Source: Neophaeotheca triangularis (Eukaryota). Taken from it: a DNA stretch of 64,000 bases. The notes below the pieces were generated by a model. It was not told the DNA's origin. It made no database searches and saw nothing but the letters and a program-made list of their open reading frames with translations. The stretch lies in contig BAAIJX010000020.1 in assembly GCA_054600435.1 (NCBI GenBank), positions 186,001 through 250,000 on the forward strand, in the 5' to 3' direction. The position numbers were made by a program, and so were the translations under genes. This document shows, in pieces, positions 4,294 to 59,982 of the stretch. Numbering within the stretch: position 1 is the first letter of the stretch; every line of letters begins with the position of its first letter.

Positions 4294-5776
4294 CAAGGAA
4301 GTCCATTGGGAGTAGGCGAAAGATCCTGGAGCTGGGCGCCTCCTTGTTGGGAGAGAGAGAAAGGGAAGAGGAAGTCGAAGAGGAGGGGAGCTCGGTTTTG
4401 TTCTTGCGAAAAGCAAGCTCGGACCACCACTTTAGGTAAGCATGCAGGAGCAGGTGACCATGGTGACGACGCTAGCGTCCTGCAAAGAGGCCTGGGCCCG
4501 TCATGGAAGGGACTAGAAGGCAGGCAGCGCAGGCAGTGAAGCGAGGAAGACGAGAAGTGAAGGCTACGGTTAGACATAGGCGATTTGGAAGCTTGTTAGG
4601 TGTAGTATCAGAAGTGATGCGGGACTCAGAACAGTACTCATACCAACTGCAGGGGCCGGCTACAAGATTACGGTTCTTTGGGGGAAAGGGATAGAGCACA
4701 TAAGGCATGTCCTTCACGAATCACAGTGGTCCAGTGAAGAGATGCACGCAGCACAGCAATCCCCAACCTTTGGCTTTCACGAGTTACCAGCGGCGAACAT
4801 ACTACATACTAGCCTTGCTTCATTCTCAATAGCTTCTCCCTCCCAAGGTGGTGAGCTTTGAAGGCCGCTGGGATCGCCGCCGGGACTGGTAGGTTGATGA
4901 GCATACTTAGCAGGTCTTTGGATGGGGACGCACGGCGCAATCGAAACATGTATACTTGAAATGTACGCAGCAGTTCTCTTACTCGCAACGACTACTCGCG
5001 AGCAACCCTCACTGACATCTCGCAGGGCATATGTTATCAACTAGATACAGCTAGTAGGCAGCCTGACTCCTTGAAGTAGCGTGGAGCCAACTTTTTGGCG
5101 TTAAAAAATAGCACTCACGGATAGAAGACTTCTACGGCAGTATTAGATTTAAGTACGTCAGCTGCATTGAAGATCGGTTCCGCAGGTGAGCGCGAGACTC
5201 GGCCCATCCGCTACTGAGTATTTCGAATTCGAGCTTCAACCCAGCTTGCTCGCCTTCATGAACCTGTACTTCTTCGACTTCGCTGCGCTTCCACTTTGGG
5301 CCGGAATTTGATTTTGAAGAATTTGCAGAAGCTCCTCTTCACGGTACCAACAGTTCGCGCTCTCCTGTCAAGGGCTCCTCCAGTCAAGGCAGGCCGAGCC
5401 CGATTTTCCTATTTCTGGAGCGTTTGAGGGTAGCAAAAGCATCGCAGAGGCTTAAGCGCAGGATAAGATACCCAATATGCAATTACTCGGCCGCTCAAGT
5501 TGATAGATTGCAACACATGGGTGATGTGAGGAGAGGGTTGGATGGGATGTCGTCGAAGTGAAGCTCCGATATCGGCGTGATCAATACGGCTTCCCAAATC
5601 TACAACGACTTTGGGCAGCTAATGAACTTTTCTACAACAAACGAGCGAGAGATAACGTCAAGGTATTTCTACTACCAGAGCAATGAAAAACGGCGCCAGC
5701 TAAAGCGTGGGAAACACACTGCGGCTCAGGTAGCATTTCTCTTAGAAACGTGACCCTCACATAGAACGATTCACTC

Positions 5777-6757
5777 TCACCCGCTCCACCACGCTCCACC
5801 CGCCTCGAATGCCCCCTGCAAACTCCCAAACCGTTGCCACACTAGAGCAGCCAGTCCAACACCCACCGGCACCGCCCCCATGACTGCCATCTTGCCCACC
5901 ATCTTCCCAAATCCCACCCACCACAATATGCCGTGAAAGTCGACAAACTGCTTCGAATCATTAACCATCGGCAGCGCCTCTCCCTCCCCTTGCGGCTTCT
6001 CAACCTTCAAAAACCCGCACAGCGGCGCCCACCCATCCTGCACTCTAAACTCCAACAGCCTCTCCTTCGGCACAACTCTCCGAACATGCTCATAATGCGC
6101 CTCAAAAGCCCTTCCCACCGCCTCACTCTCCTCAAACTCCCCCTGGGCAATCGGCATGTTAACGCCAAAAGCAGGCGGCATCATCAAACGCGCAAACCGC
6201 CACCAAGGCCCCACGACCGCGCCGTCCCAGCGCGCTATCAGGGGCCAGCCCCACCATTGCGCAACTCGCCCAATACTCGCCTGCATGCTCTTGCGCCACT
6301 TACCGACCTCCCGCGTCTGCAACACCACCAGTGCGTCGGGATAAGCCGCCACCAGCTCTTCCACGAACATACAGCACGGCACATCGGCCACGGCGTCGTA
6401 GTTGCCGAGTAGTTTGTCAAACTCCTCCCGGCCCCAGGGTTTCATGAGCGCGCTCCCGCTGTTGTCGTTGTGGTATTTGGCTCGCAGGGCTTCGCTCCAG
6501 GCTTCAAAGTTTGTCTTTGGGGAGGAGATGGCCACCGCCATGTGGTAGGGTTTGTAGCCTAGTTGTTGGAGGGCGGTGAAGAGGGTCATGGTCCCTGTGC
6601 GTGAAAGGCCGAGGCAAAGAACGCGCATCGGGACTGTACGGGTTCCGGGGTGGGAGTCGATGAGGCGGTGCGTGGTGGGGTGGGGGGTTAGGGTATACGG
6701 TTCGGTCGTCTTGCGGGGGTCGGTCGTAGAGAGGAGGGTGTGGGTGGGGTTGGCCAT
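5777..6757 (-). CDS. P-loop sulfotransferase-like protein (Sulfotransfer_4-type) with a C-terminal hydrophobic segment
   Basis: MRVLCLGLSRTGTMTLFTALQQLGYKPYHM, YDAVADVP, AAYPDALVVLQTR and VPKERLLEFRVQDGWAPLCGFL are typical of this fungal family. Intronless, 326 aa. Confidence 0.88.
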   Translation of the reverse strand: MANPTHTLLSTTDPRKTTEPYTLTPHPTTHRLIDSHPGTRTVPMRVLCLGLSRTGTMTLFTALQQLGYKPYHMAVAISSPKTNFEAWSEALRAKYHNDNSGSALMKPWGREEFDKLLGNYDAVADVPCCMFVEELVAAYPDALVVLQTREVGKWRKSMQASIGRVAQWWGWPLIARWDGAVVGPWWRFARLMMPPAFGVNMPIAQGEFEESEAVGRAFEAHYEHVRRVVPKERLLEFRVQDGWAPLCGFLKVEKPQGEGEALPMVNDSKQFVDFHGILWWVGFGKMVGKMAVMGAVPVGVGLAALVWQRFGSLQGAFEAGGAWWSG

Positions 6758-7404
6758 GTTTGGGGTTGGAGGGGTCTGGTCGGTCCTGGTTGATGTCTAG
6801 GGTACTGGGTAGGTTGAGCGAAGCTGATCGAGTTTGAATGTTCCAGGCGGAGGGTCAGAGACTGTGGGTGCTGGCGACGGCGATGTTGGAGTTGCGTAGT
6901 GCGGACTGCACAGGCTGTCTCTTATGTGGCTGCGTCTGCGTCCCTTCACGGGGTTTCCGACGATAACATGAGCTGACGTGAGCTGACATGGCCAGCTGAA
7001 CTCGCCTACGCACCTCAAGGCGCTAGGATGCGGCTGAACCATAGCCGAGCAGCGTCAGCAGCAAGCGACTACTTCTCTCCGCTCAAAGCGAGAGCAAGGA
7101 AGCGAGAAAAGCAAACGAGAACGACACAGAACTTCGAAAGGCCGAAGGTATGACAGGAAAATAGGGGGAAAAAAGGGAAAGTGAAATCGAAAATAGTCGA
7201 AAGCTTGGTTTGGCTTCCAAATAGTAGCAGCAACAGCATTGTCCACCTTGGGGTATCCCGCAAACTCCGCATTCAATATGACCGCCGACCAAGTGCCTTT
7301 TCGATTCCTCGCATGCCTTTGAACGCATTGCATGGATCCCGCACCAACGCCTCGCTTGTAGCACGCTCCTCCCCTCTTTCCCACGCCAAACATTACCTCG
7401 GATT

Positions 7405-9270
7405 CTACCGCCTATACAGCTCCCTATCTCTCTCCCGTGCCGGCGGCGGACCTTGCCTTCCCCCACCACGTCTTCCAGGACTGCGACTCCGGGTTCGTTC
7501 CCGAGGAGCTTCTTGATCCCGATAAGCGCGAGGATCGAGCTCTCGACTAGCGCCCCTCGAAGGCCCACGGTCATCGTACATGTCTCTGTCCCTATCTCTG
7601 TCGCGGAAAGCTGGTCTTCGGTCGTCACCACGCACAGGAACGTCTTCGCGGTAGCCACCAGCGCGAGGTGGAGGCGGGGCGTCGGCGTCGTAATTAGGGA
7701 TGTAACTGTCTGTGTCCGCCGCGTCACGGTTGCGGCCACCTGCGCCACCTCTGTTCCCGCGGTTTGTGGGCGGAGGTTCGTCGCGGCGAGTTAGTGGAGG
7801 GCCGCTGTCGTAGCGGTGGCCGGCTCCTGGCGGGCCGCGATCGGGGTAAGGGGGTGGAGGGTAGTCTGGGCGTGCAGGTAAGGGGTGGCCACCGTTACGG
7901 GGAGGGCCTGACGGTGGGCCACGGTCAATCTGGCGCCAGCCTGGAGGTCGGCCGTCCATGCCCGGTGGTCGCGAGCCGCGGTCGTCGTAGCCGCGGTTAT
8001 CACGACGAGGAGGAGGGTCTCGGCTGCCACGGTAGCGGTCGTTGAAATTGTTGTAGTTGTACCCGTTTGAGAAGTTAGCTTGGAGGTCTTCATTGTTACC
8101 GACCGTGCCGCCTTTGGGTGCTGGAGGGAGAGCTTGCGACTTTTCTTGCCCTCGTATTCTTGAGTCGAGCTCGTGGGAGTCCTTGAATCTTGGGAGCTGT
8201 CCTGGAGGGGTTGGTTTTGGATCGATTTTGAAGTATACGTGATCAAGGGCATCGAAAGCGTTGATCCGCTCGCGCCAGTTAAGGCATAGGAGTTTCTTGA
8301 GCAGATCAAGACCTTCGCGACCCAAAGCGCGGCCGAAGCGATTGTCGATATTGCCGCTCTTCCGTGCCCAGTCTCGGTGGCCTTCGCAACCCGGCAACTC
8401 TGACCATCCTGGCATGTTGTTCTCGTTGGGCGACCCCAGCAGCTCGAAGATTCGTACACACTGGTCAACGTCTGTCCGACCCTCTAAGATAGGCTTGCGC
8501 TCGAACATCTCCGCAAACACGCATCCTACACCCCAAATGTCAATGGCGGGAGTATACTGTCTCAAGCTGAGCAGCAACTCCGGTGGCCGATACCATCTCG
8601 TCACGACCAAGCTGGTATAGTCCCTGACCGCCTTGCCATTCCCCTGACCGGGTTGTGGTGTCGGCCCATCGTAATGTCTCGCAAGCCCAAAATCCGCAAT
8701 CTGCAGCAACCCGCTGTTCGCGATTAGAATGTTCGCCGCCTTCATGTCACGATGCAGGATATGCGAGTCGTGCAGATAGCGCACGCCTTCCAGTAACTGC
8801 AGCATGTAGCACTTGACCTGACCAGGACTGAATGCACCAATATCCGGGTTGGTAAGCATACCGCTCAGATCGTGATCCATGTACGGTGTGACCATATAAA
8901 GCGTCGCTCGCTTCTTACCCCTCTTCCCCTTCTCATCTGGCGGTTGCCTTTCCACAGCCATCTCCTCCAGCGTGAGAATGTTGGGATGGCTCAGCATCTT
9001 CAACAGCTTCACCTCGCGCAGCGCTGTGATGGGAAAGCCGTCCTTTTCGTTGTGAATGATGATCTTTTTGAGTGCCATCATTTGCCCGGTGCGTTTAGAT
9101 GTGGCCTTTGACACTAGACCAAAGGTGCCCTCTCCCAGCTTTTCCTGCACCATTTGGTAGTCGTTGATGTTTGCGCTGCCACGGAAACGGCGTTGGGTAG
9201 GATCGGTCAGGTCATGTTCGGGAGTAGGGGGATGATATGCTGGGCTTTCCGAGCCGTCCACCGTCGCCAT
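7405..9270 (-). CDS. BUR1: Cyclin-dependent CTD kinase Bur1/Sgv1 (CDK9 orthologue)
   Basis: GEGTFG loop, PITALRE cyclin-binding helix, [27 protein letters not shown], and a long Arg/Asp/Pro-rich C-terminal tail. Confidence 0.93.
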
Positions 9271-13847: not shown

Positions 13848-15564
13848 CTAAAAAGCAGAACCCTTGCGCTCGACATCGTGAACAGTCTCGACGTCAAGCT
13901 TCTCCGTCTTGCCCATGTGCTGAGAGAAGGTCTCGTGTGGGCGCCACTTGGCGGACGTCCTTGGGCTGGTCTCGGCCATCATCATGTCGACTTGTTCAAG
14001 AGAAAGACCCTTGGTCTCAGGGACCAGGAAGTAGGCGTAGACAAAGGCGCATGTGCAGAGACCGCCCCAGACGAAGAACACAAACGATCGAAGATTGCCC
14101 TCCTCTGTGTTGACCATGTAGGGGGTGATGACGGCGATGATGGTGTTCCAGAGCCAGTTGCTGGCTGTGGAGAGACCGACACCACGGGAGCGGATGGGGA
14201 GAGGGAAGATTTCACCAATGACGATCCAAGCGCCGGGTCCCCAAGTGGAGGCGAAGAAGAAGATGAAGATGGCAATGAAGGCGATCTGTGCGTTGACGGC
14301 AGAGACGTTGTCGGCGACCGGGTCACCGTTGGCGTCAGGAGTGGTCTGGTTGAAACCGACCGTGACACCGATAATGGCGACGAGGAATTGACAGATCAAC
14401 ATGCCAAGCGCACCCCAGATGAGAAGTGGGCGGCGTCCAAACTTCTCAACGGTGTAGAAAGAGATTGGTGTGGAGCAAACGTTAACCAGGGTGAAGACCA
14501 AGGACATCAAGAAGGGGTTGTCGATGGCGCCGGTAGACTGGAGGAAGGGAGTAGAGTAGTAGAAGATGAAATTGACACCGGTCCACTGTTGCATCATCTG
14601 GAGAGAGGTTCCGAGGATGGTCTTGCGCAGGTTAGAGTTTGACTTGAAGACAGAGCCGCTGAAACAGTTGGCCCAGCTGCCGAACCAGCCAGAGGTTGGG
14701 ATGAGCTCGCGCTCGTACTCCTCGTTGGCAATGATTTCAGCAAGCTCAGCCTCGACGTACTCCGACTCCGGGGGCTGGCCACGAATGCGAACGAGCGCCT
14801 GGCGAGCTTTCTCAATGCGACCACGCTTGACGAAGTAGCGAGGCGAGTCAGGCAGAAGGAAGAGACCAACGCCGAGGATGACACCCCAGGCGAATTGGAC
14901 ACCGATCGGAATTTCGTAGGAAGCTGCGTCGGTGCGGTCCTGGACAGCGTAGTTGACGCAGGCAGCAAGAAGCAGACCAATGGTGATGCAGAATTGGTAG
15001 CCTGCGACGAGCGCACCACGAATCTTGCGAGGGCAAATCTCGGACATGTACAGAATGACAATGGCGGATTCGAAACCGACGCCCACACCAGCAATGAGAC
15101 GACCGGCGACGATCATACCGAGGTTCTGAACAGCAATCTGGATGACAACACCTGAATATGTGTGTTAGCAGGTTGTCCAAGAGTGAGTTGTGCTGGATGA
15201 GAGCTTGTGGCTTACCGATAATGTAGATACCGCAACCGAGGACAATGGTAAGACGACGACCGATCATGTCAGCGAGATCACCGGCCATGATCGCACCGAA
15301 GAAAGTACCAGCGGACAGAATAGAGACAATAAGGGATTGGTTGGAGCCGGTGAGTTCAGGGCTCTGAGCGTCTGCCGGGAGGTTCTCGATCAGGCGAACG
15401 AAGACATCGGAGGCGATGACACCGTTGATGTAACCAGAGTCGTAACCGAAGAAGATACCACCGAACGAGGCGAAGGCGCAGGCCAGGTAGGCTTTCCAGG
15501 TGACAGGAGCTTCAACGCTGTCAACGTTATGGGGGACGGACATGGCCCGTTCCGAGGAGGGCAT
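13848..15564 (-). CDS. MFS sugar porter, resembling high-affinity glucose/monosaccharide transporters; intron 15215-15152
   Basis: FGGIFFGYDSG, DMIGRR, YMSEICPRKIRG, PDSPRY, QQWTGVNFIFYY, EKFGRRPLL, GEIFPLPIRSRG and PETKGLSLEQVD sugar-porter signatures. Intron GTAAGC...GCTAAC...CAG. Confidence 0.95.
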
Positions 15565-18249
15565 GATGAAGGTCCTGCTTTGACTTCAGTTGTGGGTAGT
15601 AGGGCGACTCTTGTCTGGGGTGATTGGGTTGAGGTTGAGGTTGGTGTTGGTGTTGATGATCGATCGAGTGGTTGGTAGGATCCCCTGGGTTGGTATGAGT
15701 GAGAGCGAGTGGACGAGGGTCAGGTAGGTGGGCGAGGAGAGGAGGTCGAGTGACCAGGTCAGGCCGGGAGGGATTGTTTGGAGGCGGATGGAGGAGAGAA
15801 GAAACGGGGGGAGAGGTGGGCGACGAGCGTGATACTTATTATACCTCACTTCACAAACGCACCTTCCTGCGGGGCACCCATGGTCCCGGGCGAGGCTGCG
15901 GGAGACCAGGTAAGGTTAGGTACCTACACTACCTAGTATTGATGTGAGCTGGCTGGGGTGTGAAAGCACAGACGATTCTGGACCGCATGCATACCAAGGT
16001 AGTTGCCGTTGCTATTGGATACACTGGCCGCTCCATGCCCCCCCACAACGACTAGTCCCAAAACTGCCACGGTCGTGCGAGCCCCATGTGACCCGTCCAA
16101 TTCGGACTTCTAGAAACACGGCTAGTGACTGTCACTACCTACCGACTTATTAGGTAGGTATCCATTATTGGCTACGGGGGCTGGCCTTTGGTCAAGTTTG
16201 CAGTCTAATAATTGCTTGACTCTTTGCCTAGCTAGCTGAATACGGGTACGACGGGATAATATCATCATGTGCTCGCCACGACGATAGGTACGGCAGGTAG
16301 CAGTAGCCGCCACACTCCTACCGCGAGCAGCCGTATCCGAAAGAGACCTCACCCTGCTAGCTACTAACTACCTTGCCTAGTAGTAAAATACCCTTTGTTA
16401 ATTGCGCACTCGCAGGGAGGCCACGCGACAGCAATGCCAAGATGCAGGCCTGCGAGAGCGACGGAAGAGAGTGAGATGACTGACTAGCTTTTGCCCAGCC
16501 GCGTCCCGACAGAAACGCAAAACCGTGTACCTAGGTAGTCAGCCTACCACGCCTCGAAGCTCGTCGCTAATACGTACCAAGCTCTGACGAGCGAAGATCC
16601 TGCGCGCCACCGATAATCGGGCATGGGAGGTATCGCGCTGTTTCGAATCGCGAAAACTTCATATAGTCGTCGACCCGTCCCAGAGGCCCTGTCACGGCTT
16701 GCTGGTGGTACAACAGACGTCGCGCTGTTTGTCAGCCGTCTCACGTGGGCGTTGACCACGAATAGCAGAGTGGGTATACTACGGAATGGAGAGCAGTGGA
16801 TGTATGAAAAGTCAAGCAGCTCAAGCAAGCAAGCTGGGGTTAAGCTCGCGTCTCAGCCGAGGTTCAGCGTGAGTTTATCTGCGACAGAACGCGCTAGACC
16901 CGGCCATGTGCGGCTATCGACCCTATTCCAGCCTTGGCCCGATTCTTTACCACAACCAGTCAAGACTCACCCCCCCTCCACACCTCCACACCTCACCCCT
17001 TCACCTTTACCACTCCTACCCAGTCGGCGTCTTTTGTCGGGCTTGTTTTCGCTCATATTAGACAACGCCACTGGTCACGTCGTCGATCAATCGCACCACA
17101 ACAAGACCATCGCTTTGCAGTATTGCTCCAGCGTGATCTTTCGTCTGGAAACTCGTGCCGAAATTCTCAGGCCCCCTGCTTCAGTCTACCGAAGTCCGGC
17201 CCATAGCGTTCCGATGGCCAACGTGCCAACTGCCAATCACACTACTCGCCATTAACCATCACTAGCCGGCGGTACCGCCAAAGTGGTCAGAAAACCACTG
17301 ATCTTCCCGGCAATGTGCCGCAACGCCTCTGGGGCCCCTTGGGCCTTGAGTCTTGACACTTCATCGTCCGGATCAGGATGCAGCTATCCAGAGAGGCAGT
17401 AGTGTGGGAGCCTGCCGCTTTCCATGCTTACATAGAATTCGCTGTTTTCGCTGTTTGCCTCCAAATTCAACAAATCTGAACTGTCACTTCAAGTGCGCCG
17501 TCCATTCTCCATACCGTTGTGTGTTCGAGCGGCTGAATTCTAACTCCTGGCGTGTCACGGTTGCTTCAAGACAAGCAACCCGCCTTGTGTACGCCTTTGT
17601 GCAGGCACATCCATCTAACGTTAGTGGCGCCCTACGAGAGCATTGCTAGGGCTAACCTTGGCAATCCTCCGAAGAAAACAAGCAGCGCCATGTTGCTTCG
17701 CTTGCCCTTAGGGAACAAGGATAGGCTTCCACCGGGCACCGCAAAAGCAATCTCGACATCCACACCTGCAGTAGTTTGCTCCCGGTAGAATCTTTCGGGT
17801 TGTTTACCGTCTGTGCGCTCCCATTGTAAGCAGCAATTGTTCTGCATGTCAGTCCACCACGTCCACCTCCTGCGAGATGCGCCTTGACTCGTGAGTCGCT
17901 AAAACTCCCAAATTCTTCGGATCTTGGAGATAGCGCAGCGATTCCACCTTTTCCCACAGCCCTAACGCCCTTGGTCTCACGTATTCCGAGCAAGATAATC
18001 TCCGGCAGATGCTATCGGCATAAGAAGCTAATCTCGCTCGTAGATCTCTTAATAGACTGCCTAGACGCTATCTGCCTTGCCGCTTCTTGGTCGGCAGTCG
18101 GTCGGCAATCGGTCATGCTTCTCATTCGCTAAAGCCTTACCTATACCTTTTACGAAAAGATACGAAAAACAGTCAGCAGCAGCTAGAACACTGTAGCCTG
18201 AGTTCTAGAAGGCGGCTTGAAGAGTCATCATCCACCCAAGCAGTGACAT

Positions 18250-19400
18250 GTTCTCTCCAAATAATGGTCATCACGAGAAACCGCGCCTCCCTTTACAAAC
18301 ACAAACGCAGCCCAGGCCATCAAAACACCTCGCTTGGTCTGGCCAACCCCATCACCCGAAACTCTCAACTCCGACCGCTCGACAAGAGACAGCAGCAGTG
18401 GAGCACATTCGCTTAACCACAGCTATTCGGCCCTTTCTCCACGACTCACTCCATGCGGCATTTGCAAATTTGGAAGCAGCTCTGCAACCCCCCCATTAAT
18501 CTCCGTGTCTACTCCGTTTTTTCCTCACCTCTCCACCGTATCGCTCCACGGGGCGAATGCACTCAGCACCACAAAGTCTGGGCACTCCACCATCCGGAGT
18601 CCACCGTCCCCTTGCTCCTCGTCTCGGGTAGCCATCACGCAGACCGCAAACCTGCCCGAGCGCGACCTTTTCGGTCCGAATAGCTATTCGCCCTCTCCTC
18701 GCTATCCACTGCTCCGCTGCTGCTTCTTTGTGAAGATGTGGCACTCGCTGTCCCACGAGTTCGCTATCCGTGCTTCTCCATCCTTCGTCCCGCGGCGGAG
18801 CCCCAGGTCTCCATCCGTAATCGTATCATGAACTCTGGTTTCGCTTCTTTGTTGGAGACTCCATTCTTTTTCCTTGCGTCTCGCGGAAGTTGCCAGGCGC
18901 GAGGGCGTGGCGAGCCGTCGATGAGATTATTGTCGGTGTGGTCGGCTGGTGGGTCCTTCAGAGGTATGACTTTGGGTCCAACTGTCACTGTGGGTGGCCA
19001 TGTGGCTCTCCACTCTTCATGGTTTGGACTCTGCTCCTGTCATTCCAGACCGTCGCGGTGCCGTGTTGCTGATGTCTGCACTATGACACTGGGCTTCATG
19101 ACACTGGGCCTTGGCTTCGCCTTCGGGATCAAGCTGACGAGCTCGAGCGTAAGCGTTTTGGGGTACTGGTGTCACAAACCGCTTGTTCTGCATTGCCACG
19201 ATTTTCCTTTGCTCTCCCGGACCTGCAGCACCCTTTCATCTGCTCCGGAACCTCGATACCCACAGCAAGAAAGAGACATGGCCTCTATGAGCCACAGCGA
19301 GTTTTTGTTGACTACGTTCGAGAGCGACCCCAAGATCGCGAGCGCAAGAAGCCGTACAGAACTATCTCATCCTAGCGCATTGGATCAACATCGTTATCTC
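18250..19400 (-). pseudogene. Possible degraded coding relic
   Basis: Minus-strand frames give protein-like stretches broken by stops (e.g. LELVSLIPKAKPRPSVMKPSVIVQ..., MVECPDFVVLSAFAPWSDTVER*GKNGVDTEINGGVAELLPNLQ). The long plus-strand ORF 18738-19703 may be an antisense shadow. No family recognised. Confidence 0.25.
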
Positions 19401-20010
19401 ATAAAGCATTCCAATTTCCCTCCTCTCGGAATTTCCCTCCTCTCGGCATCTCAACAAAACGTCCCCTCACCCAAGTGCAAGCTGAAGGACCGGCAAAGCG
19501 CTAAAAGCAAGCGCAGCAAAGAAATGTTATCATCAGATGAAAAGCCCACGTCGAATGTGGAAAGAAAGAAGATATCTCTGTGCTTCAGCGAATCGAGCCC
19601 GCAATCTTTGGTAAGGAAACAAAAACCTATTAATATTACCCCCGAGACATGCAGTAGCGTAAAAGTCGTGTTTGCTCATCATCAGCTTCTTCTTTTGCTC
19701 TGACGGCCGGCGATCCAGGCCGCGAGAGGAGGTGCATCCTTAAGGCTCTTGCTCTTGCCAGCCTTAGGCTGCTTCTCCTCGTCGAACGCCCGGAACATCC
19801 GGCGGGGAGATGCCTTATTGAGGATAAGGCATGTCCTCTTTTGATTTCTTACATCTTGCCGACAGCAGCAGCAACAGCAGCAGCAGCCTCGATTTCCAGC
19901 TCTCTTGTGATCCACGTCTATCCCCTTCCCAACTCTTCCTCTGCTTGTGCCTGCAACATATTCTTTCAAGGGCTTCAGTTCCCCCCTTGCTCTTTTCATC
20001 CGCATCTTGC

Positions 20011-22737
20011 TCACTGAACATTGCTCACAAAAGAATAAAAATCGCGACGTATTGGAGGGTCCTGGGATGGCAAGACTGCATCCATGACAAACCTGCCGTC
20101 TCCATCCTGAGCATCGTCCCCTTGCACTTCCAGCGACTGGTCCGACCCTGGCTCGTGTGGGCCTTGCGAGACTCCAGTTTCTCCCGATAGGCCCTCGTCA
20201 TCCAAGCCGGTCTCTACCGTAGGTCGCAACGACGCATCCTCTTCAATTTCGGCTGAAGGAGGTGAAGCTGAGTTGTCGTACACATCGCGCGGCTGCTCTA
20301 GGATGGAGTCTCTAAATTGACTGCTCGCGCTTCCCGACCTGCCGGCTTGACTGCGCTGCAGACTCGCACTTGGGCTTCTGGCACTACTCCATGGTGCCAG
20401 TTCGGAGATTGGCCATTTGACCTCTGGCGCGTCTTTTTCTGGAATTATCAATCTTGTCCCTTCCGCGTAGTTTTCGACCTTCAAAAGACCGAAGATGTAG
20501 TCCAGAAATTCGGGATATTTCAGAAAGCTCCGATGCCAATCATCGTCAATAGCTTCCTGCAGCGTGAGGTCCGCCTGCGTGAGCTGCTGCTTTAGAAGCT
20601 GAATCTCGTGCGGAGGTAAGGGTGGCTCTCCGTCATGTTGAATATACAAGAAGTAGTACGGTAGGCTCTGGAGGTGCGTTTGCCATTGCGCGAGTCGGGT
20701 GTCGCGCAGTGAGTTGAAAGAGTTGAGAACATGGTTTTTAGCTTGATTGAGAACCCAGGCTCTACAGTGTGTTAGCTCACTGTTGCTTAATTGTCTTGAG
20801 CAGAGTTCCGTACTTAGCGTGATCGATTTCCGTTGGGGGCAAAGTCGAGCCCCTTAACCCGACACGGTCCTTGAAACGGATAGTGGCTTGGTCCCAGTCC
20901 GATTCCAGGGATCGACCCTCGTGCGGACACTCTGGATAGGCAGGCGCGCCGCAAAAAGCGCAACATGGCTGTATTTCGGGCCGTGCACCCGCCGGGGTCT
21001 CTTGAAGTGGGTCGTTGTTTGCTAAAGTGTTTGAGTGCACGTTGGCGTCCAATGGGCTGAACTTGTCAGAGACAGTTTTATCTTGCTCGACCGAGAACCC
21101 TTCGTCTTCTTCGTTGTCTCTGCGGCTAGTTCCACCAGAGGCAATAGAAGCGTTGTCGCCGAATTCATCCATGACAGAGCGGCTGCTTCCATCATGCTGC
21201 AAAGAGACGCTTCCGGCTTTTTCGTCGGAGCAATCAGCTACCGGTGGTATAGCGAACAGCGCGAGCTGCTCCAGGTGTTTCGCAAGGTGGCGTTCCAACA
21301 CAGAAACGCTGATGTATGGACCGGCCGACTGACCCGGACGCTCTACCAAAACCCCTTTCGATCTTTTTGACAGGCTTGGCCCTTCGCAGAAAGGACATGC
21401 TGAAGGAAGGACGTGGGAGATGGCTTGAGAGGCGTTCTGGTCCCTCATATCACCGGTCGACGGATCTAGACTGCCGGGATGTAAAGTAGAAGTGTGTTCC
21501 CTCAACGCTTGAGGGCTTTCCAACGCTTGCTCGGGGCATGCCGTACACTTCCAGGTCCGTCGATGCGATGCCCTTTCGTGGGCGGACCAAGCGGACTTGG
21601 TAGGGAAGAGCGCACTCGTGCATCCTTCGAATGTACACGTATAGGCCCTGAGATCGCTGAGCACGTGTGCTCTGCATGGAAAGCGTCAATGGATAACCGT
21701 CAATGGACTCACAGAGCTTGAAGGGCTCCGTATTCATTGTGAATATTAAGCACATACCTCCATGTCTTTTGCTTCTTGAACATCACCATACCTGAGCAGT
21801 ACGGGCAAGCAAAAGGTTCGCCTTCCGGAGATAAGGATTCCAGAGGTACAACTTGAATCTCCCGTGATCGATCCTCGGCACCGGGACCGGTTTCTATGGA
21901 GGATACTGACGACACGCCGTCGTCGAAGTGATCTAGTTGCTGGAGTCTCGAAACCTCGATATCCTGTGGAAGTAGCGTCGTTGCCTTCGTCGAAGCCAGC
22001 GTCGGCCTATACATGACAGTGCTTGCTCCTTCCTGTATCGGCACAGGCTCGTCGCCCATTGCCGGCTTGTTGTATGCGAGGCGCGCACCGTGATCCCTTG
22101 CATACGCCAGATACTGGCGACGTTGCGTAATGGCCTCACCGAGTTTTCGAAGAAGTTTCGGGCTACCCTCCAGCTTGGGGAACTTCATGCGCACGTGTTC
22201 TATGTCGTAGAAACTCAGCAACGGTGAGTGTCGTGCGGCGGCTCGTTTGGCGAGTTCGAACCGGTCGTGACCTGCGCTACTTTGACGGACTATGACGGAG
22301 ATTTTCATCAGGCTCGTAATGTTGTCGTCAGCTAAGAGCCACAGCTCTGATAACTCCGATTCTGGCTCCGGTCCGGCATCGTCACCCATGTACTTAGCCA
22401 TGAGATCGTCACGGCCCTCATCTTCATCCTGCATCAAGCCTTCGCGCTCGCCGGATAAGATGCCACCAATGTCTTCCAATGTCTCGAGCAGTTCCTGGAG
22501 TAGCTGAACGAATCTCTGTCCGACCTCAGGAACACGGCGCACTCGGAAATCTGCCGACTTGGGATCGCTCGCTGCATGGTATGCACCTATATTGCCCGCC
22601 CAAAGATTGAACCTTGCCTCTTGGTCCAGGATCTTTTGCCTATCAGTGTAATTATCCGCCCGCAAATCCCTTATGTCTTCAAATTTTGCGAGGACTTGGC
22701 GAGTGTAGCGGTCGATTCCAGACGTCTGTGCTTCCAT
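20011..22737 (-). CDS. Multi-domain protein: N-terminal helical domain, AcuF-like C2H2 zinc-finger cluster, and a distinct C-terminal Cys/His-plus-helical domain; introns 21757-21672 and 20813-20762
   Basis: RFNLWAGNIGA...SADFRVR; DIEHVRMKFPKL...KLGEAITQRRQYLAY; PFACPYC...WR|AHVLSDLRAYTCTFEGC...HERASH...CTAC...H...ACPFC...HLAKHLEQLALFAIP. Both GT-AG introns restore the frame. A further donor (GTGAGC, ~20028) might extend the 3' end. Confidence 0.82.
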
Positions 22738-23145
22738 ATTGACTTGCCCTCGTTCCCTTCTTGCTGATTGAAGTCTCTTTATTTTGCAATGCTGACTAGA
22801 TAGTCTGCAGAGTTGCTACCCTGGAAAGTGGGAAGCCTTGCGCATGCCCGTCTCGGCCAGTAAAGGAGGATTGAAGAACAAGGGAGCTCTGCCGGTAAGT
22901 GATCTTGATCTCTTTGATTGACTAGACAGGCATTTGATGGCAGAATGAACTGTTGTCCGGGGGGATTCTATCGAGAAATTCCATCTTGAGATACATGGCC
23001 AGGGTAGGCAAGGCTGGGCACGATGCACCTCAGCTCTAGATGTAGTTAAAAGCGGGGCATGTTGTATATATCTTCAGCCTCGCCGAGCACCCCACCTCTT
23101 TCTAAAGTTTTCTGCACCCGGTGACAAGAAATAAAAAAAGAAGGC

Positions 23146-24978
23146 ATGAGCGGCATCGAAGTGGCAGGCGTTCTCCTCGGCGCCTTCCCTCTCATCATCT
23201 CGGCTTTGGAGCATTTCGAGACGACGAAGAAGGGGGTTCGTGGCTGGTGGAAAATCCGCACGCAATACAAGAAAGACTTGGGAAGACTACGCACCTGCGA
23301 GCTCAAGTTTCAACTCAACCTCAAAGCACTACTGGGCCCTCTCGAGTTTGAGGGTACCATTGCAAAAACAGATGTCGATCGCATGCTCAGGAACGTCGAC
23401 GACGTGGGCTGGCAGAACTCGGACGTCCAAGAAGCCCTCATTGAGAGGCTCGGGCCGACGAAGACTAGATTTCTCGATATCATCCAAGAAATGAATGAGG
23501 CAATAGTACAGCTCGCAAGAAAGTCCTTAGTCAACGATCCGAGCTTCCAGACGGCTTTGCAGGCAGGTGTGAAGGTACGGCCAATTCACTAGCTGTTTAC
23601 AACCAGCCCAATTTCAGTCAGCTAAAGTCTTTGCCAGGCCAAGGATGCCCGACTCAAACTCACAGCAAACGAACACATTGCCTTTGAGTGCAAAAGGATC
23701 ATGTATACCGTGTCCGGAACAACACGCGAGGCCCTTCTCGGCGAGATCGACCGCTTGAATGACGACCTTTCAAAGTTCCTCAGAGCGTGTGATGGCTTAG
23801 CACAATTCCAGGACACACCAGAGAAAACGTCGTCCAGGAGGATGAAGCGGAAATATCGGCACTTACTCGGATTCTGGAAGCACGCCGAGAGCGTATATTT
23901 CCTCATACAGCAAGCGTGGCAGTGCAAATGCGCTCCGTGGCACTGCGCCTATCTCTGGCTTGATCGAAGAACCTCGAGTCCAGACGATTGTTTCGAGATT
24001 TTGCTCAGGTTCAGCGACGGCGCTTCGAGGCAGCAGCTGTGCGCGCCAGCGACGTGGCAAGAGCAAGGACTCCGGCTGCAGAAGAGCCTCGACGCCCAGT
24101 CCAAATATGACGCGCCAGACCCGCAGCCGGAAGAGGGAATCATGAAAACGGTCGTTTTTAGCCTTCCTACCAGGAGCCACCCGGTTGTCATGGGAGTAGA
24201 ACCCGCAACGTCAGTTTCGCCTGGAGGAAAGGCTAGCGCAAGCCAGATCACGACAGCCGCGACCCCAACGAGCCAGCCGCGGGCAATAGAGATTGCAAAA
24301 GTTGGACTCTGTGAAAGTGCAGAGAGAAGCCAGAAGCTTATAGGAGATACGAGTCTCGGACTATTGAGTGATAGCCAAACCGGCTGCTGCTTTTCGGTGT
24401 TCAGCACTTGTAGCTCGGTGACAGCATCAGTCAGTCTCGCGAGTATCTTAGAAGACGCGAACTCCCGATATGGCCTCTTCCGCACCCAGCGACTCACCTT
24501 GGCCTACACCATAGCGAGCTCCTTCCTCCAGCTATACGAGACTCCCTGGCTACGCGACCAGGCAATGGCGCGCGCAATCAGCCTACCTCTGACAGCAGAC
24601 TCCAAGAATGTGTGTTTCGACAAGCCATTCGTTCATGTAGCGTTCAAGCAGAACATGTGCGAATGGGTCGAGAACGAAGCTCTGATCGAGCTGGGCATTT
24701 TGCTGCTAGAACTCTGCTTCAACCGGCCGCTAGAGTCGCACCATGAGTGGCAGGATCGGAAGCTCACGAACCTGAGCTCGGATAGGCTGGTGCGCCAGTC
24801 CATTGCTATGAAGTGGTCCAAGAAGGTAGTGCACGAGCTCGACAACGACTATTTCATAGCCGTTGACTGGTGCTTACACAAGGCGACGCTGACAAGCGCT
24901 GACTGGCGTCTGGATTTTGCGAAGATGGTAGTACAGCCGCTGCGACTCTGCTACGAGGCTGTGCCCGTCATCCAGTGA
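23146..24978 (+). CDS. Protein with a HeLo-like N-terminus and a degenerate kinase-like C-terminal domain (DUF7580-like); intron 23575-23637
   Basis: N-terminal MSGIEVAGVLLGAFPLIISALEHF helix; central WQCKCAPWHCAYL; C-terminal RLTLAYTIASSFLQLYETPWL...LGILLLELCFNRPLE...YFIAVDWCL...FAKMVVQPL. A phase-0 intron (GTACGG...GCTAA...CAG) removes the in-frame stops. Confidence 0.8.
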
Positions 24979-26490
24979 TCATCACTGTGTATCTCTCCGG
25001 AAGCCGTTACGTCGGCGGTGGCCCAAATCGACTATCTCTGTGGCAAAGAGCGCTTTCTGGGAAAAGGGAGTGCTGAGAATCGGGATGGGCAGGCTGCTAT
25101 CAGTTAATGGCGATTCGCCGTTTAGTTGAATGACAGCTCCTGGGACACAGTTAGTACGCTGAGTAATTTCTGCCAATCTTCCAAGAGTGAGCGACTCTGC
25201 GCATGTCTTTGTCTCTTGCGGTTTGAGATAGCAAGAGCTAGGGCATTCTCTGCAAACGTACTTTGCAGACCTTCGAATCGGTTCCTGCACGAAGCTCAAG
25301 CGTTGAAACAGCTCCCTAAGCATTCCGGGTTGCGACTACTAATAATTTCCAGAGCACAGCGCTGTGGGGGTTGCATCCAACGTCCCGTGTCGCCGTCCGG
25401 GCATCATTGTTATGGACTTGGAGTGATTGAAGATGACGGGTGTGAGAACAAGGACGTGCGGTTGTATTCACGCCCAACCCCTAGCCCCTAGTGACTGGCC
25501 AGCTTGAGTAGTAGTAATGATCGGGAGACACAAACGCATTCACGCTCGTGGCCGCGATCGGTAGAAGCCGGCGCGTTTTCTTATTCATCTTGCTGCCTCA
25601 GGACCATTCATTGCTAGGAGGTCGATGGTCCGCGAGTGGAGCGGAGGGGGGAGGACTCGGAGGAGGTCGATTACCACAACACTTGAGTAAAGATGGAGCT
25701 GTACCAAAAAGCGTAAGGTACCTGATGCCGTGCGATCGACATTCTAGAACGTTGTCGAGAGCGGGCCCAAACCTCAACGTCGGGATTGCGTTCGGAACCG
25801 GTCAAAGTCTCTCTAGCCACGTGTAGAGTCAATTTCGACCTTATTACCTAGGTAGGTAGGTAGAGTTCCGATGTTAGGAGGTAAGATACCTAGGTGGCCG
25901 ATTTATCGTATACCTAGTAACATGAATGGACCAGCAATATCGTTGCTGCCTGGGTAGGCTACGCTACCCCTCTAGGCAACAACAACAACAACATGCATTA
26001 TGGAGTACATCATCCGTGTAACGTGACGCTGCTCGGGGTTTTTCGTACTCTGCCGTGATCCTGCCGCGTCGTGGAGGCGTGTGGCTGATGTCAGCGTAGC
26101 TCCCGCGTCCACCTGCACCTGCACCCGGACTTTTCGGAGATTTTCATGAGATGCTGTTCCTTCCGTTCAAACAAAGGTAGTTGCCATTTCAGGGTTTGAA
26201 GGGGAAATCCCATCTTTCTTCGACAGCGAGATTGAGTAGTGTCAGTTGATGATGGACGGGATGCATCGACTAAGTACCTCGGAGGTAATTGGTACCGTGT
26301 TGTACCGTAGGTCCGTACCTTTCTAGCTTTGGTTGGGCTAGCGGCGTGGCAGTTGAAGACGATCGGCGTTAAATTACGCATCGTTGCCTGTTGCGTACCC
26401 AGGTAGGTGGACTAGACACGCACTACACATGCGCGGTTCGTTGTGAACCTGTGATGAGGCGCGTAGAAGGAAATTGACAGCTACTTTGCA

Positions 26491-26528
26491 TAATAACAAT
26501 AACAATAATAATAATAATAATAATAATT
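26491..26528. repeat. (AAT)n/(AAC) microsatellite
   Basis: taataacaataacaataataataataataataataat read directly. Confidence 0.9.
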
Positions 26529-27162
26529 GGAGCATGTTTAAATGTTTATGCGGAAGAAAGCGAAAGGCTTCCATCTCTGTTATTAATTGTTTAAAGTGAG
26601 ATTGACCTGGTAGCGCACAATCTCCCGTCGTGGCACGTCTTGGACCCCCTCATTATTTTAATTATCACGAGGTACAAGTAGTTATCTCAAGGCTTACTCA
26701 ACATGCCCGAGTCAGTTCCAACGCTCTCTTCCATTCTCCTGGTGTGTCTGTTCTTGCACTGCCACCAAACCCACCTCATCACTCATCGTTCGTCACTCGT
26801 CACTCGTCACCCTTTAGCCGACGACTACCTTACCTACCTAGACCTACCTTACTGTACCTTAACCCCCCCAATAATTTCCACCTCCACACTCACCATGTCA
26901 CTACCACTACTGTCGCTGCTCGTCTAATTACTTTGTTTACTGCTGCCTACTCACCACCATCACCACCACTACTACCACTACCACATCATGCCCGCCTCTA
27001 CACTTCGACGACACAGCAACACCACCTAGACCACCTCAACTTCACTCTGCAATTCAGGAACCCCGCAAGGGACCTCTAGACCCTGAACAAGCTCCACAAA
27101 CCTAAGGACTCTGAAACGCAGACAAATAACTCTACAATACAACCTCCAACACCTTCACAACG

Positions 27163-57493: not shown

Positions 57494-59032
57494 TCATTCC
57501 CCCAACCCCTCAGACCACTCCACCCATCGCCTAACACACTCATCCACGCCCCTGACCCCCTTCCGACTCGCCTCAACCTGAAACCACTCCCGATGCTCCT
57601 TACCACAAGCCCCGCAAACCCTCTTGACCTGCCGTTCGGCCAGCTCAAGATGAATCAATCGCTCCACGCGCTTGACATTCTGTACTTTCCTCACAAAACC
57701 GCTGCTAGTCTCGCTAGCTCTGCGAGGTGACGAGGGAGATAACGGGGAAAGGTCGGGGTAGAGGGAGGGTTGGGCGCTCTGGCGGTTCGGGGTGCGGCGA
57801 GGTGAGGGCAATGGGGAGGTGACAGGAGTGGTACCCGAGGGGACGTGTGGGTACCAGCGGATGAGGTTGAGGGCGTAGCCGCATTGGCGCTGCCATTCGT
57901 TCATGCGGCGGGTTATGTTGTTTGCGCGGCCGATTTTGAGCATAATGGTTTTGGGCTCGGGGTTCTTGGGGCCGGCGGTTTCGCGCGGCGAGGTGTGGAA
58001 AGAGTACTCAGTCATCACGTCGGAGATGCGGCGGTCATGGTCAGGTCGGGTTGGTGGAGAGAGTAAGGAGCGTGCTGTGCTTTCGGGTGGCGCTTGTTTT
58101 GTCTGTGGGGTTAGCCAGAAGATGTAGATGTAGCCTTCTTCGTCTGTGGGCGAGATTGGTTTGACTAGTTCGGCGAGGAGGGCGGACGTCGTTTGAGGGG
58201 ATAGGTGGGAGGGGATTAGTGATAGCAGCTGAGTTGACTGTGATTGACTTGAACCGAGACGTGGTGGGGTGGAGTGATCTCTTATCGGAAGGAAGATATT
58301 CGCTGGCGCCGAAGCCCTTTTGCTTTGTCTTCTGTCGTCAGTTGGCTGCTGCGGCTCGTTGGGGCCTCGTTTCCAAGGAGGAGTCGCATTCGGTGTTGGA
58401 GCCATCTCGGGCCTCTGCTGATCATTGACTTTTCTTCGATGACGAACAACCTCGACGTAGTCATCGTCCTGGGAGCTAGTCATACAACATAGACTGGACA
58501 AGAAGCCGTTCCTCTTCTTTGACGGTGGTTTTGAAGCACGATCATACTGTGTGGGTTCGTGTCTGCGATTCGGCCGGGGCACGTTATCATCAGTGCGCTC
58601 TTTCGGAGGCAGTCTGGCATCTGGCCCTGGACGCCGCTCCCTTCGCGGTGCTCTCTTCGAAGACACATCGCTTGATGCGATGCCTAAACGTTGTACCAGA
58701 GTATCGATGCTGCTCCTCTCTTGAAGCGGATACAATTGAGGGTCTCTTTGTTCCTTGCCTTTTGCCCCTCCCCGCTGTTCAACTGTGATATCTTGCGCCT
58801 GGCTCTTGTGTTGCCAGCAATAGAGATCTGCTTCAGTTCCTCCTCCGTCCTGATCTGTCAGACCGGCCCCGCCTAGATGTCGCTTGCTAGTCGTTGGTGA
58901 AGCTTTTGGGCTCGCCAGCGCTCTTCTGCACGGTCGACCGGCGGATGTGATGCCTCTGCATGTCGTAGATGGGTTCCTGCTATCGTTACGTCCTAGTAAT
59001 GCTTCTGGCGTGTTCGCAAATTGAGGAGGCAT
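57494..59032 (-). CDS. MUG113 / T5orf172 (GIY-YIG-like, DUF1766-type) domain protein
   Basis: N-terminal TCRGITSAGRPCRR...YCWQH; C-terminal GYIYIFW, LKIGRANNITRRMNEWQRQC, RVERLIHLEL and CGACGKEHREWF. Confidence 0.88.
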   Translation of the reverse strand: MPPQFANTPEALLGRNDSRNPSTTCRGITSAGRPCRRALASPKASPTTSKRHLGGAGLTDQDGGGTEADLYCWQHKSQAQDITVEQRGGAKGKEQRDPQLYPLQERSSIDTLVQRLGIASSDVSSKRAPRRERRPGPDARLPPKERTDDNVPRPNRRHEPTQYDRASKPPSKKRNGFLSSLCCMTSSQDDDYVEVVRHRRKVNDQQRPEMAPTPNATPPWKRGPNEPQQPTDDRRQSKRASAPANIFLPIRDHSTPPRLGSSQSQSTQLLSLIPSHLSPQTTSALLAELVKPISPTDEEGYIYIFWLTPQTKQAPPESTARSLLSPPTRPDHDRRISDVMTEYSFHTSPRETAGPKNPEPKTIMLKIGRANNITRRMNEWQRQCGYALNLIRWYPHVPSGTTPVTSPLPSPRRTPNRQSAQPSLYPDLSPLSPSSPRRASETSSGFVRKVQNVKRVERLIHLELAERQVKRVCGACGKEHREWFQVEASRKGVRGVDECVRRWVEWSEGLGE

Positions 59033-59982
59033 AGGGAAATACTCTCTTCAGACCTTGGCCTTTGTTGGCTGATGATGATGATAATGATGGTGGGGAGAAT
59101 GAAAGGTGTTGTGAGGGTGAGGATGCAAATGTGTTAGTTTCTACATTACCTACAATATCTGGCAATTGAAGAGATCGAAGACAGTCAATCTTGTCGCGTC
59201 GTTGAGAGCGCGCAAGGCATCCAATAACAGTCACCCGGATTCGACTCGACATTAGCGTGACGAAGGAGGAAAAGCAGCGGAACTCGCGAGGCTGCAGGTG
59301 GTTTGGTTGGTCAAGTGGCTGAGCTGGGTTTCTGGCCAAAAGCGGCCTAGTCTCGGCGCGTAAACATGTGACTGCCAAGCCTTTCTACAATAACACCACG
59401 TCGTCTTCGCTGCAGTCAGTACCTTAATGATACCTACCTACTGTTACTTATGCCCATGGTGCAGACACTGTCAACGATCCCCTTCTTCTTCGATGGCGAC
59501 GACGAGACATTAGGCTACTGGTAGACATCCAGACTACCGTGATAAGCCTTACCACACTAAGATGGACAGCAATCAATCATGACCTTGTGCTACACAGCTC
59601 TAGCATTCAGTTAGTATCCGCAAAAACAACCTCCTATCCTAGTCAAAGGCGCCACAGCGATGGCACCTACACAATCAAAGCGGAAAGGCATTCATCTATC
59701 AAACGTGTTATGCATGTGCTCTGCCCTTTAGTAACGTCACATCCCACCCAACCCACTAGCCATGACCCCTAGCAACGTGGAATGCAGTTGAACGAACAAA
59801 GATATGTCCGCTTTCAGCCAGTACACGTCCGTTTCGCGTAAGCATTGTTGTCTAGCAGACAATCTCTATCATTTGATAGACCTTGCAAGCCGCAGCGCCT
59901 TCCCCAAGATGCAAACTCAAACCTCAAGGCCTACACCTTGAGTTCCCAACCACTGCCATCCCAATTCAAAACCCCAGCAAAA

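Follow-up and report, generated by a model that had tools for sequence, protein, structure and literature searches.

What keeps two divergently transcribed genes together in a fungal genome when everything around them changes, and what might such a pair do? The question is raised by a head-to-head gene pair of the Dothideomycete Neophaeotheca triangularis, which lies in a window of fungal DNA (the whole stretch of 64,000 nucleotides analysed here, contig BAAIJX010000020.1 of assembly GCA_054600435.1, positions 186,001 to 250,000). Only a few systems of immunity and regulated cell death have been described in fungi, namely HET-S/NWD2, HELLP, gasdermin/protease and the HET/TIR NOD-like receptors (NLRs). 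An earlier note, made from the sequence alone, had proposed that the pair is another one, in which a HeLo-pseudokinase protein reminiscent of MLKL (plus strand, here gene A) acts as the executor and a zinc-finger protein (minus strand, gene B) as its sensor or inhibitor. Here, we find that genes A and B very probably form one conserved functional unit, and we put the probability that this unit is a sensor/executor system working as outlined below at about one in two.

Both genes are real and intact. Rebuilding the models returned the two spliced, divergent genes of the earlier note with an identical spacer of 408 bp (Table 1). The translation of gene A (589 amino acids, aa) is identical to ‘hypothetical protein MBLNU230_g2739t1 [Neophaeotheca triangularis]’. 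The public model of gene B (g2738t1, 836 aa) runs into the first intron, changes frame and loses fingers 1b to 3, and our model of 862 aa recovers the W-R-x-H-x-x-x-D-L-x-x-Y-x-C-T motif of its relatives. Residues 34-469 of the new model align without a break with the relative P0027, and residues 93-511 align with P0028 (E 1.2e-47 in both cases), the fingers being covered in both.

The strongest evidence comes from the arrangement of homologues in other genomes. Loci were fetched with the DUF7580 profile of gene A alone, which gave 133 stretches encoding a relative among 447 metagenomic candidates, and the best 80 were kept. All 878,350 bases of these 80 loci were searched with the gene B protein and two of its relatives (tblastn). 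A divergent gene B homologue precedes gene A in 37/37 loci whose upstream sequence is ≥2500 bp long (39/40 for ≥2000 bp, 40/43 for ≥1500 bp), at spacer lengths of 323-1222 bp as measured by the ends of high-scoring segment pairs (HSPs), and no gene B match was found downstream, on the same strand or elsewhere in the 878,350 bases. The expectation of the earlier note that homologues would be co-located and divergent is thus borne out. The 40 positive loci represent 26 clusters at ≥80% nucleotide identity, and representative loci rarely have homologous open reading frames in their outer flanks (10 of 325 pairs); therefore, the pairing does not reflect general synteny. Chance adjacency and ordinary synteny were rejected as explanations on the 37/37 and 10/325 counts, and the pair thus shows the adjacency beyond general synteny by which sensor/executor two-gene clusters are recognised. 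Pairwise identities of genes A and B correlate with each other (r 0.80, 0 of 2000 Mantel permutations, medians 35% and 34%), which shows inheritance as a unit and is by itself no evidence of co-evolution. To our knowledge, head-to-head pairs kept at ~35% identity with all neighbours changing are rare in fungi.

Linkage could also persist without any joint function, if the pair duplicated or moved as one segment, e.g. as cargo of a mobile element, with two proteins acting independently. The lack of conserved neighbours (the same 10/325 locus pairs), the recovery of several distinct pairs from single metagenome samples and an AT-rich flank at one locus would agree with this. However, adjacency and orientation are kept across 26 clusters at a median protein identity of ~35%, a divergence at which passive linkage in fungi would long have broken down, and the outer flanks are already scrambled. 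Moreover, no transposase-like domain was detected among the flank frames scanned, and the pair of the window is set among ordinary housekeeping genes. We thus regard mere linkage as highly improbable.

Partner-negative loci are confined to three of the 43 with at least 1500 bp upstream. In L027, the match is limited to the last 176 residues of the gene A family. The other two records, L073 and L074, differ by 67 bases but represent one sequence, the only clear case of a missing partner; the first exon of their gene A is out of frame with the remainder, and no open frame of ≥70 aa is present in the upstream stretch read in L074 (1-1900). A partnerless and frame-broken gene A is what one would expect if gene A could not be kept alone, i.e. 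if its product were constitutively dangerous and gene B encoded a stoichiometric inhibitor whose loss or modification triggers A. Such a guard or antidote arrangement has the same players as the sensor/executor reading with the sign of regulation reversed, and strict co-inheritance and a shared promoter, keeping dosage matched, would suit it as well. It is nevertheless unlikely in our view, given that a single locus is concerned, that an intron or a variant of the assembly could account for the broken frame (the 67-base difference), and that the toxicity of gene A is itself a prediction.

The family of gene A is large. DUF7580 (PF24476), a family already considered in the earlier note, matches exon 2 above the Pfam gathering cut-off (E 1.5e-10, 41.7 bits, cut-off 27), the whole protein scores 40.9 bits, and 58 of the 84 family members scanned with Pfam carry the domain. 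An exhaustive HMMER search counted 1573 representatives with E≤1e-3, of which 103 reach E≤1e-30, and named members belong to Dothideomycetes, Lecanoromycetes, and Sordariomycetes. As most representatives align over the full length of gene A, the N-terminal region and DUF7580 belong together. As modelled by AlphaFold2 from an alignment with 66 relatives (predicted local distance difference test (pLDDT) 84.2, predicted template modelling score (pTM) 0.78), the protein consists of an all-helical part (residues 1-236), three strands (245-292), a disordered segment (302-351) and a mixed alpha/beta part (362-588).

Everything beyond the helical part resembles the bilobal fold of protein kinases in the prediction. 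VIA-align places residues ~225-587 on the kinase domains of BRAF, TNNI3K, RAF1, ILK, and FAK (Z 9-10.5, 150-196 residues aligned), with Z≥8 for 240 of 1000 chains. In a Foldseek search of the full model against the PDB, the first row is the AtMLKL3 tetramer (6ka4_A, E 7.5e-3, probability 0.95) and the second the human MLKL pseudokinase domain (6bwk, E 1.1e-2), followed in later rows by TYK2 JH2, NFR5, Pan3, and IRAK4; across these rows, the probability is 0.95-1.00 and E is 7.5e-3 or worse. The catalytic residues are lost: no column with a conserved Lys, Asp or Asn exists in aa 222-589 of the 66-sequence family alignment, a weak family consensus K454/D456 (‘K-x-D’) is Ala/Ala in gene A, and the Pkinase profile hit one of 84 family members only (E 0.048). 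An active protein kinase was rejected on these grounds. The structure model thus describes the C-terminal part of gene A as a kinase-fold domain without catalytic residues, much as the C-lobe-like domain lacking HRD and DFG had been read from the letters. Sequence methods miss the kinase relationship, and the kinase-fold label consequently rests on predicted structure only. Four residues, C239, C241, H245, and C368, are almost invariant in the family alignment and could form a structural zinc site in the pseudokinase.

The N-terminus of gene A is the candidate membrane-acting part. The hydrophobic stretch MSGIEVAGVLLGAFPL was found as first read, and the model has helices at 3-26, 34-68, 92-126, 153-201, and 204-236 (pLDDT mostly 80-97). 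The first helix is conserved across the family (hydrophobic, MSGxExAGxVLGAFPL), with M1, G3, E5, G8, L11, and P15 conserved at ≥90%. A model of the isolated region was obtained for the homologue P0153 (253-aa N-terminal fragment, 84 relatives, pLDDT 86.1) and compared with 48,161 chains by VIA, a fold search independent of Foldseek. The top 50 matches considered include the Sw-5b SD (Z 9.5), Rx-CC (Z 8.8, root mean square deviation 2.4, 105 residues aligned of a 107-residue chain), AtMLKL3 1-138 (Z 7.3), mouse MLKL 2-116 (Z 7.1), MLA13 2-120 (Z 7.0), the N-terminal domain of human MLKL (Z 6.8) and HET-S 11-179 (2wvo, Z 6.2); Rx-CC, AtMLKL3, MLKL, MLA13, and HET-S were each aligned from their own N-terminus. 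In the language-model Atlas, the nearest named clusters to residues 1-240 of gene A are PF14479 HeLo (0.93 with 172 shared features, and 0.90), which we take as a lead only. We consider a HeLo- or four-helix-bundle (4HB)-like bundle at the gene A N-terminus plausible.

Gene B has two parts that differ in conservation. Only the first ~470 residues are common to relatives (tblastn HSPs cover query residues ~30-470). This module comprises a helical domain with the motifs RFxLWAGNIGA (RFNLWAGNIGA in gene B itself), ITxLFRxSxLIR, FDIxHVxEKFPKL, and RLGRAITxRRQYL, and four C2H2-type fingers (C311/C314, C339/C344-H358/H363, C369/C372-H386/H391, C419/C422-H455/H459), the series of fingers ending in HLEQLALFAIP. 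Together with an unshared tail of ~390 aa, this agrees with the RFxLWAGNIG domain, at least four fingers and distinct C-terminus described in the earlier note. With their long, irregular spacing, the fingers resemble the atypical AcuF type, and the precomputed annotation of P0027, P0028, and four further relatives contains PF26082. In the available text of a Neurospora crassa pangenome paper, PF26082 is zf-C2H2_AcuF and ranks among the most copy-number over-dispersed families of N. crassa strains, along with HET and ankyrin (PMC13412767). In the Lophium protein P0027, the finger module is combined with an Rsc7/Swp82 domain. At the related locus L014 (5336-6298), an Rsc7 frame sits ~2 kb past the module behind annexin and GATA frames, and P0027 is thus possibly a fused gene model. 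The same may apply to four very long relatives of gene B retrieved by a length-directed homology search (1951-5000 aa).

The C-terminal ~390 aa of gene B, in turn, have no Pfam match and no relative in the 80 loci. A CCAFCG..C.H motif is present, ~190 aa form a region that belongs to no known family, and the Atlas search with this domain returned only unnamed Ascomycota clusters (≤0.89). The corresponding position in relatives is occupied by diverse domains. When the 43 longer of 105 minus-strand frames (≥90 aa) just past the module were scanned in the 26 representative loci, 11 of these loci had a Pfam domain in the frame overlapping the module end, ranging from ankyrin and TPR repeats to enzymes (Table 1). 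The next frame beyond encodes ten TPR_10 stretches in L013 and ankyrin in L007, and ankyrin and Macro domains occur in long database relatives of gene B. The open frame of L017 encodes an NLR with the finger module as N-terminal domain, still paired with a DUF7580 gene. The system had been called NLR-free, which holds for the pair of the window (no NACHT or NB-ARC domain in gene B by Pfam scan) and for most relatives, where a nucleotide-oligomerization domain (NOD) is absent, but not for L017 with its NACHT-type NTPase. TPR, ankyrin, and NACHT-type tails plausibly fit a sensor role, and a conserved module with exchangeable repeat or enzyme domains matches the pattern of fungal NLRs and gasdermin-adjacent proteases (PMC10197012; PMC12881547).

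C2H2 fingers and a short shared spacer in all loci also suggest another possibility, namely that gene B is a DNA-binding C2H2 transcription factor acting on the shared promoter and gene A a signalling scaffold or pseudokinase without any role in membrane attack or cell death. The pairing would then be kept for co-regulation, as for pathway-specific regulators of fungal gene clusters. This would agree with the Myb DNA-binding domain encoded by an open frame close to the L069 partner, and with the word CTTCAGCCTCG, which lies just after a TATATA run: similar words (≤2 mismatches) are present in 13 of 26 spacers vs 190 of 961 control pieces. This enrichment is weak, though, and the words have no fixed position or strand across the 26 spacers, hence CTTCAGCCTCG was rejected as a shared operator. 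The atypical, AcuF-like fingers with their long, irregular spacing speak against a regulator and its target as well, and so do the tails, because TPR, ankyrin, NACHT-type NTPase, kinase, and phosphatase domains typify receptors and signalling proteins rather than promoter-specific regulators. Predicted binding between the two proteins, described next, weakly adds to this, and overall we consider a regulator-target relationship improbable.

In a fold-based binding test that made no use of alignments, the whole gene A protein and exon 1 of gene B (326 aa) reached a score of 0.42 (runs 0.42, 0.42, 0.45) vs 0.17 for the best of three controls, with runs agreeing in ≥53% of contacts and a partner pLDDT of ≥57. 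The mark was reached by 51/78 solved complexes and 2/108 mismatched pairs, and in a eukaryotic calibration by 39/65 solved and 2/126 unrelated pairs. Passes at ≤0.60 comprised only 5/78 solved complexes and all four passing mismatches (of 180), and a score of 0.42 lies in a band where most passes are false unless a contact was already probable. The conserved pairing provides a strong prior, so the score raises the odds of direct contact a little. The interaction considered in the earlier note thus has weak in-silico support.

Taken together, a sensor/executor system might work as follows. The variable tail of gene B would sense a cue, be it non-self, an effector or a perturbed target, with the C-terminal domain differing by lineage and the conserved ~470-aa module serving as adaptor. 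This module would engage the pseudokinase domain of gene A, most likely a regulatory or receiver domain that has lost its catalytic residues, and thereby either release or restrain gene A. Once freed, the hydrophobic first helix and helical bundle, the likely membrane-acting part, would act on membranes and bring about cell death in a regulated form, or a similar defence response. In its layout, the pair parallels RIPK3/MLKL and the two-gene protease/gasdermin clusters of fungi. Conserved pairing, the pseudokinase-like fold, and sensor-fitting tails favour this reading of the earlier note, although its HeLo profile match did not materialise; physical binding, the assignment of sensor and executor, membrane attack, and a role in death or immunity are what we infer. 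A broader and more tentative version, to which we give somewhat less than even odds, is that Pezizomycotina carry a widespread and so far undescribed necroptosis-like module, in which finger-module receptors directly gate a dedicated, divergently encoded, MLKL-like pseudokinase executor. These receptors would swap TPR, ankyrin, NACHT-ankyrin, kinase, phosphatase, and macro sensors, and the module would need neither amyloid signalling nor, in most cases, a NOD.

A number of observations count against the sensor/executor reading. On the side of the kinase-like domain, Foldseek returned no PDB row at E≤1e-3 for the gene A model, and the family profile aligned to the window's own true protein kinase with an hhalign probability of just 0.15. 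The 66-member profile retrieved only a designed protein (E 0.46) from all PDB sequences, and membership of the MLKL family by sequence homology was rejected on that result. At the N-terminus, HeLo, SesA, PigL_N, and MLKL_NTD had no Pfam match at E≤1 in eight members scanned singly. Nor did they appear when the 84 members were scanned, where 25 of 71 matching families were listed and, by listing order, each of the others would match at most one member. Membership of the HeLo, HeLo-like, SesA or PigL_N families (PF14479, PF17111, PF17107) was thus not supported by profile. The N-terminal model is that of P0153, a 35% identical homologue, and not of the gene A protein. With this isolated model, Foldseek found no HeLo or MLKL chain, the best match being SPECT1 (E 0.04), besides IncA, BAR domains, and designed bundles. 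The top VIA rows are designed repeat proteins and dynactin at Z 10.1, and the Z values of 6-9 are ambiguous, as they stay below the ~13 that helical bundles can reach by common arrangement. Of the HeLo N-terminus claimed initially, a suggestive fold likeness to 4HB and HeLo domains remains, but not the family match. As for the pair itself, its splice sites were placed by homology and by consensus signals, the loci are metagenome contigs from few studies, and pairing was established in the direction from gene A to gene B. At L073 (1-2148) and L074 (1-1864), an AT-rich, RIP-like (repeat-induced point mutation) upstream stretch of 34% GC replaces the partner. Furthermore, a mirror-tree correlation is expected for any co-inherited gene pair, and C2H2 fingers could simply mark a DNA-binding regulator.

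Comparison with known systems shows where the pair fits and where it departs. With MLKL and AtMLKL1-3, gene A shares the predicted order of a helical bundle, connecting helices, and a kinase fold without catalytic residues. AtMLKL3 and human MLKL occupy the first two rows of the full-length Foldseek search, and with the P0153 model, N-terminal bundles of MLKL proteins rank within the best 50 of 48,161 chains. The MLKL-like architecture suggested previously thus agrees with the best full-length Foldseek rows, weak as these are by their E values. In contrast to MLKL, gene A has no detectable sequence similarity and weak fold scores. Its N-lobe-like part is cut to ~3 strands with a conserved Cys/His cluster, its partner is a zinc-finger module protein instead of a RIPK3-type kinase or the pathway of Toll/interleukin-1 receptor-type NLRs (TNL), and a phosphorylation logic is not evident in the pair. 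HET-S/NWD2 and HELLP/PNT1 are likewise adjacent pairs of filamentous ascomycetes, as described in the accessible part of a review (PMC12881547), and gene A also has a hydrophobic helix and a predicted helical bundle, HET-S (2wvo) being among the top 50 fold matches of the P0153 model. Relatives of gene B are receptor-like, with TPR, ankyrin or NACHT parts in some lineages. However, a HeLo or HELL Pfam match is lacking, neither gene has an amyloid or prion motif, the receiver in gene A is pseudokinase-like, what is conserved in gene B is a zinc-finger module, and both the copy of the window and most relatives lack a NOD. Fungal gasdermin/protease clusters, according to the portions available of two reviews (PMC10197012; PMC12881547), also place a conserved activating module with variable ankyrin, TPR, WD40 or NLR parts beside a membrane-attacking executor, and the tails of gene B relatives are swapped in a similar way; yet gene A is no gasdermin, gene B has no protease domain, and nothing points to activation by cleavage. 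Head-to-head pairs of sensor and helper NLRs in plants are similar in their divergence, shared promoter, and division of labour between two genes (available text of PMC12258605), but an NLR is encoded by neither gene A nor gene B of the window.

We found no paper describing a DUF7580/zinc-finger pair. A full-text literature search retrieved no paper naming DUF7580 or PF24476, and PF26082 was named only in the N. crassa pangenome paper (PMC13412767). As far as its accessible text goes, a 2025 study of Sordariales NLRs (PMC12258605) reports that head-to-head NLR pairs are rare (13/225 two-NLR clusters). There, C2H2 fingers occur in 34 NLRs and are treated as non-canonical integrated domains, and the sole N-terminal domain in five is a zinc finger; a DUF7580 partner is not mentioned in that text. 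The terms ‘pseudokinase’, ‘zinc finger’, and ‘C2H2’ do not appear in the available portion of a 2022 catalogue of fungal NLR effector domains. MLKL homologues in plants are mentioned in the accessible parts of reviews of 2025 and 2023 (PMC12881547; PMC10197012), which ask for fungal HeLo/4HB proteins to be explored more broadly, and a Basidiobolus ‘MLKL’ is cited in one paper for which part of the text was available.

The genes surrounding the pair in the window are ordinary, i.e. a sugar transporter, DXD glycosyltransferase, AP mu subunit, P5 ATPase, Ste12, aspartokinase, MINDY deubiquitinase, and GARS. In the immediate flanks (15200-20010 and 24979-27100), 34 of 35 open frames of ≥75 aa have no Pfam match, the exception being the 5′ exon that belongs to the sugar transporter. 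About 6.4 kb (15700-20010 and 24979-27100) are without any Pfam-recognisable frame and include a stop-free frame of 339 aa (18684-19703). The earlier note had seen gene relics here, but such frames demonstrate neither relics nor the absence of relics. Elsewhere in the window, an open frame on the minus strand (57497-59047) encodes T5orf172/MUG113 domains (E 1.6e-20), which are related to GIY-YIG and belong to a frequently mobile family. Words sampled from 20011-24978 were found at shares of 0.28 and 0.00 in two further public runs with the same organism label, where divergence or absence in other isolates might be the cause, and of 0.13 in a marine metatranscriptome; nothing is concluded from these shares.

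Table 1. Features of the head-to-head pair in the window (positions of the 64,000-nucleotide stretch) and domains following the gene B module at other loci (positions of the respective locus).
Feature	Position	Strand	Description or basis
Gene A, MLKL-like by predicted structure (public g2739t1)	23146..24978	+	589 aa; spliced translation = P0006
Gene A exons	23146-23574; 23638-24978	+	ATG 23146
Gene A intron	23575-23637	+	63 nt, GT..AG
Predicted N-terminal all-helical region, bundle and ‘brace’ helices, aa 1-236	23146..23916 (spans intron)	+	AlphaFold2 model
Predicted kinase-like, catalytically dead domain (DUF7580), aa ~237-589	23917..24975	+	Pfam, structure model, alignment
Cys-x-Cys-x3-His and distant Cys (C239, C241, H245, C368)	23860-23880, 24247-24249	+	N-lobe-like part, DUF7580 family
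Predicted disordered insert	aa 302-351 of gene A protein	+	AlphaFold2 model
Divergent spacer, 408 bp	22738..23145	.	presumed bidirectional promoter
Word CTTCAGCCTCG	23072-23082	.	just after TATATA run, 74 nt before gene A ATG
Gene B, zinc-finger partner (public g2738t1)	20011..22737	-	862 aa; homology-supported model
Gene B exons	22737-21758; 21671-20814; 20761-20011	-	without internal stop
Gene B intron 1	21757-21672	-	86 nt, GTATGT..CAG
Gene B intron 2	20813-20762	-	52 nt, GTACGG..TAG, with GCTAAC
Conserved ~470-aa module, helical N-domain and four AcuF-like fingers	21242..22737 (including intron 21672-21757)	-	tblastn, alignment
Lineage-specific C-terminal part of gene B, aa ~471-862	20011..21241	-	not shared with relatives
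L017 tail	5434-8181	-	NPHP3_N (NACHT-type) and ankyrin, one 916-aa open frame including module end
L018 tail			TPR_10/12; Pfam
L022 tail			ankyrin and Pkinase; Pfam
L043 tail			DUF7104 and ankyrin; Pfam
L031 tail			DUF7104; Pfam
L065 tail			ankyrin; Pfam
L059 tail			ankyrin; Pfam
L044 tail			UBX and C2; Pfam
L056 tail			Y_phosphatase; Pfam
L009 tail			DUF6590; Pfam
L014 tail			annexin; Pfam

The conserved pair is a concrete, very widespread, and testable candidate for a sensor/executor system, given the 1573 representatives of the gene A family, and its conservation needs explaining even if the cell-death reading fails. If that reading is true, functions would be gained for two function-less Pfam families, DUF7580 and zf-C2H2_AcuF, and the C2H2 fingers at the N-terminus of some fungal NLRs, as reported in the available text of PMC12258605, would be explained. 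An MLKL-like architecture would then answer to a regulator that is not a RIP kinase. In addition to amyloid signalling of the NLR/HeLo kind and to protease/gasdermin systems, fungi would have a third way of killing cells by membrane attack, and the MLKL design of a helical bundle plus pseudokinase would be placed in ascomycetes.

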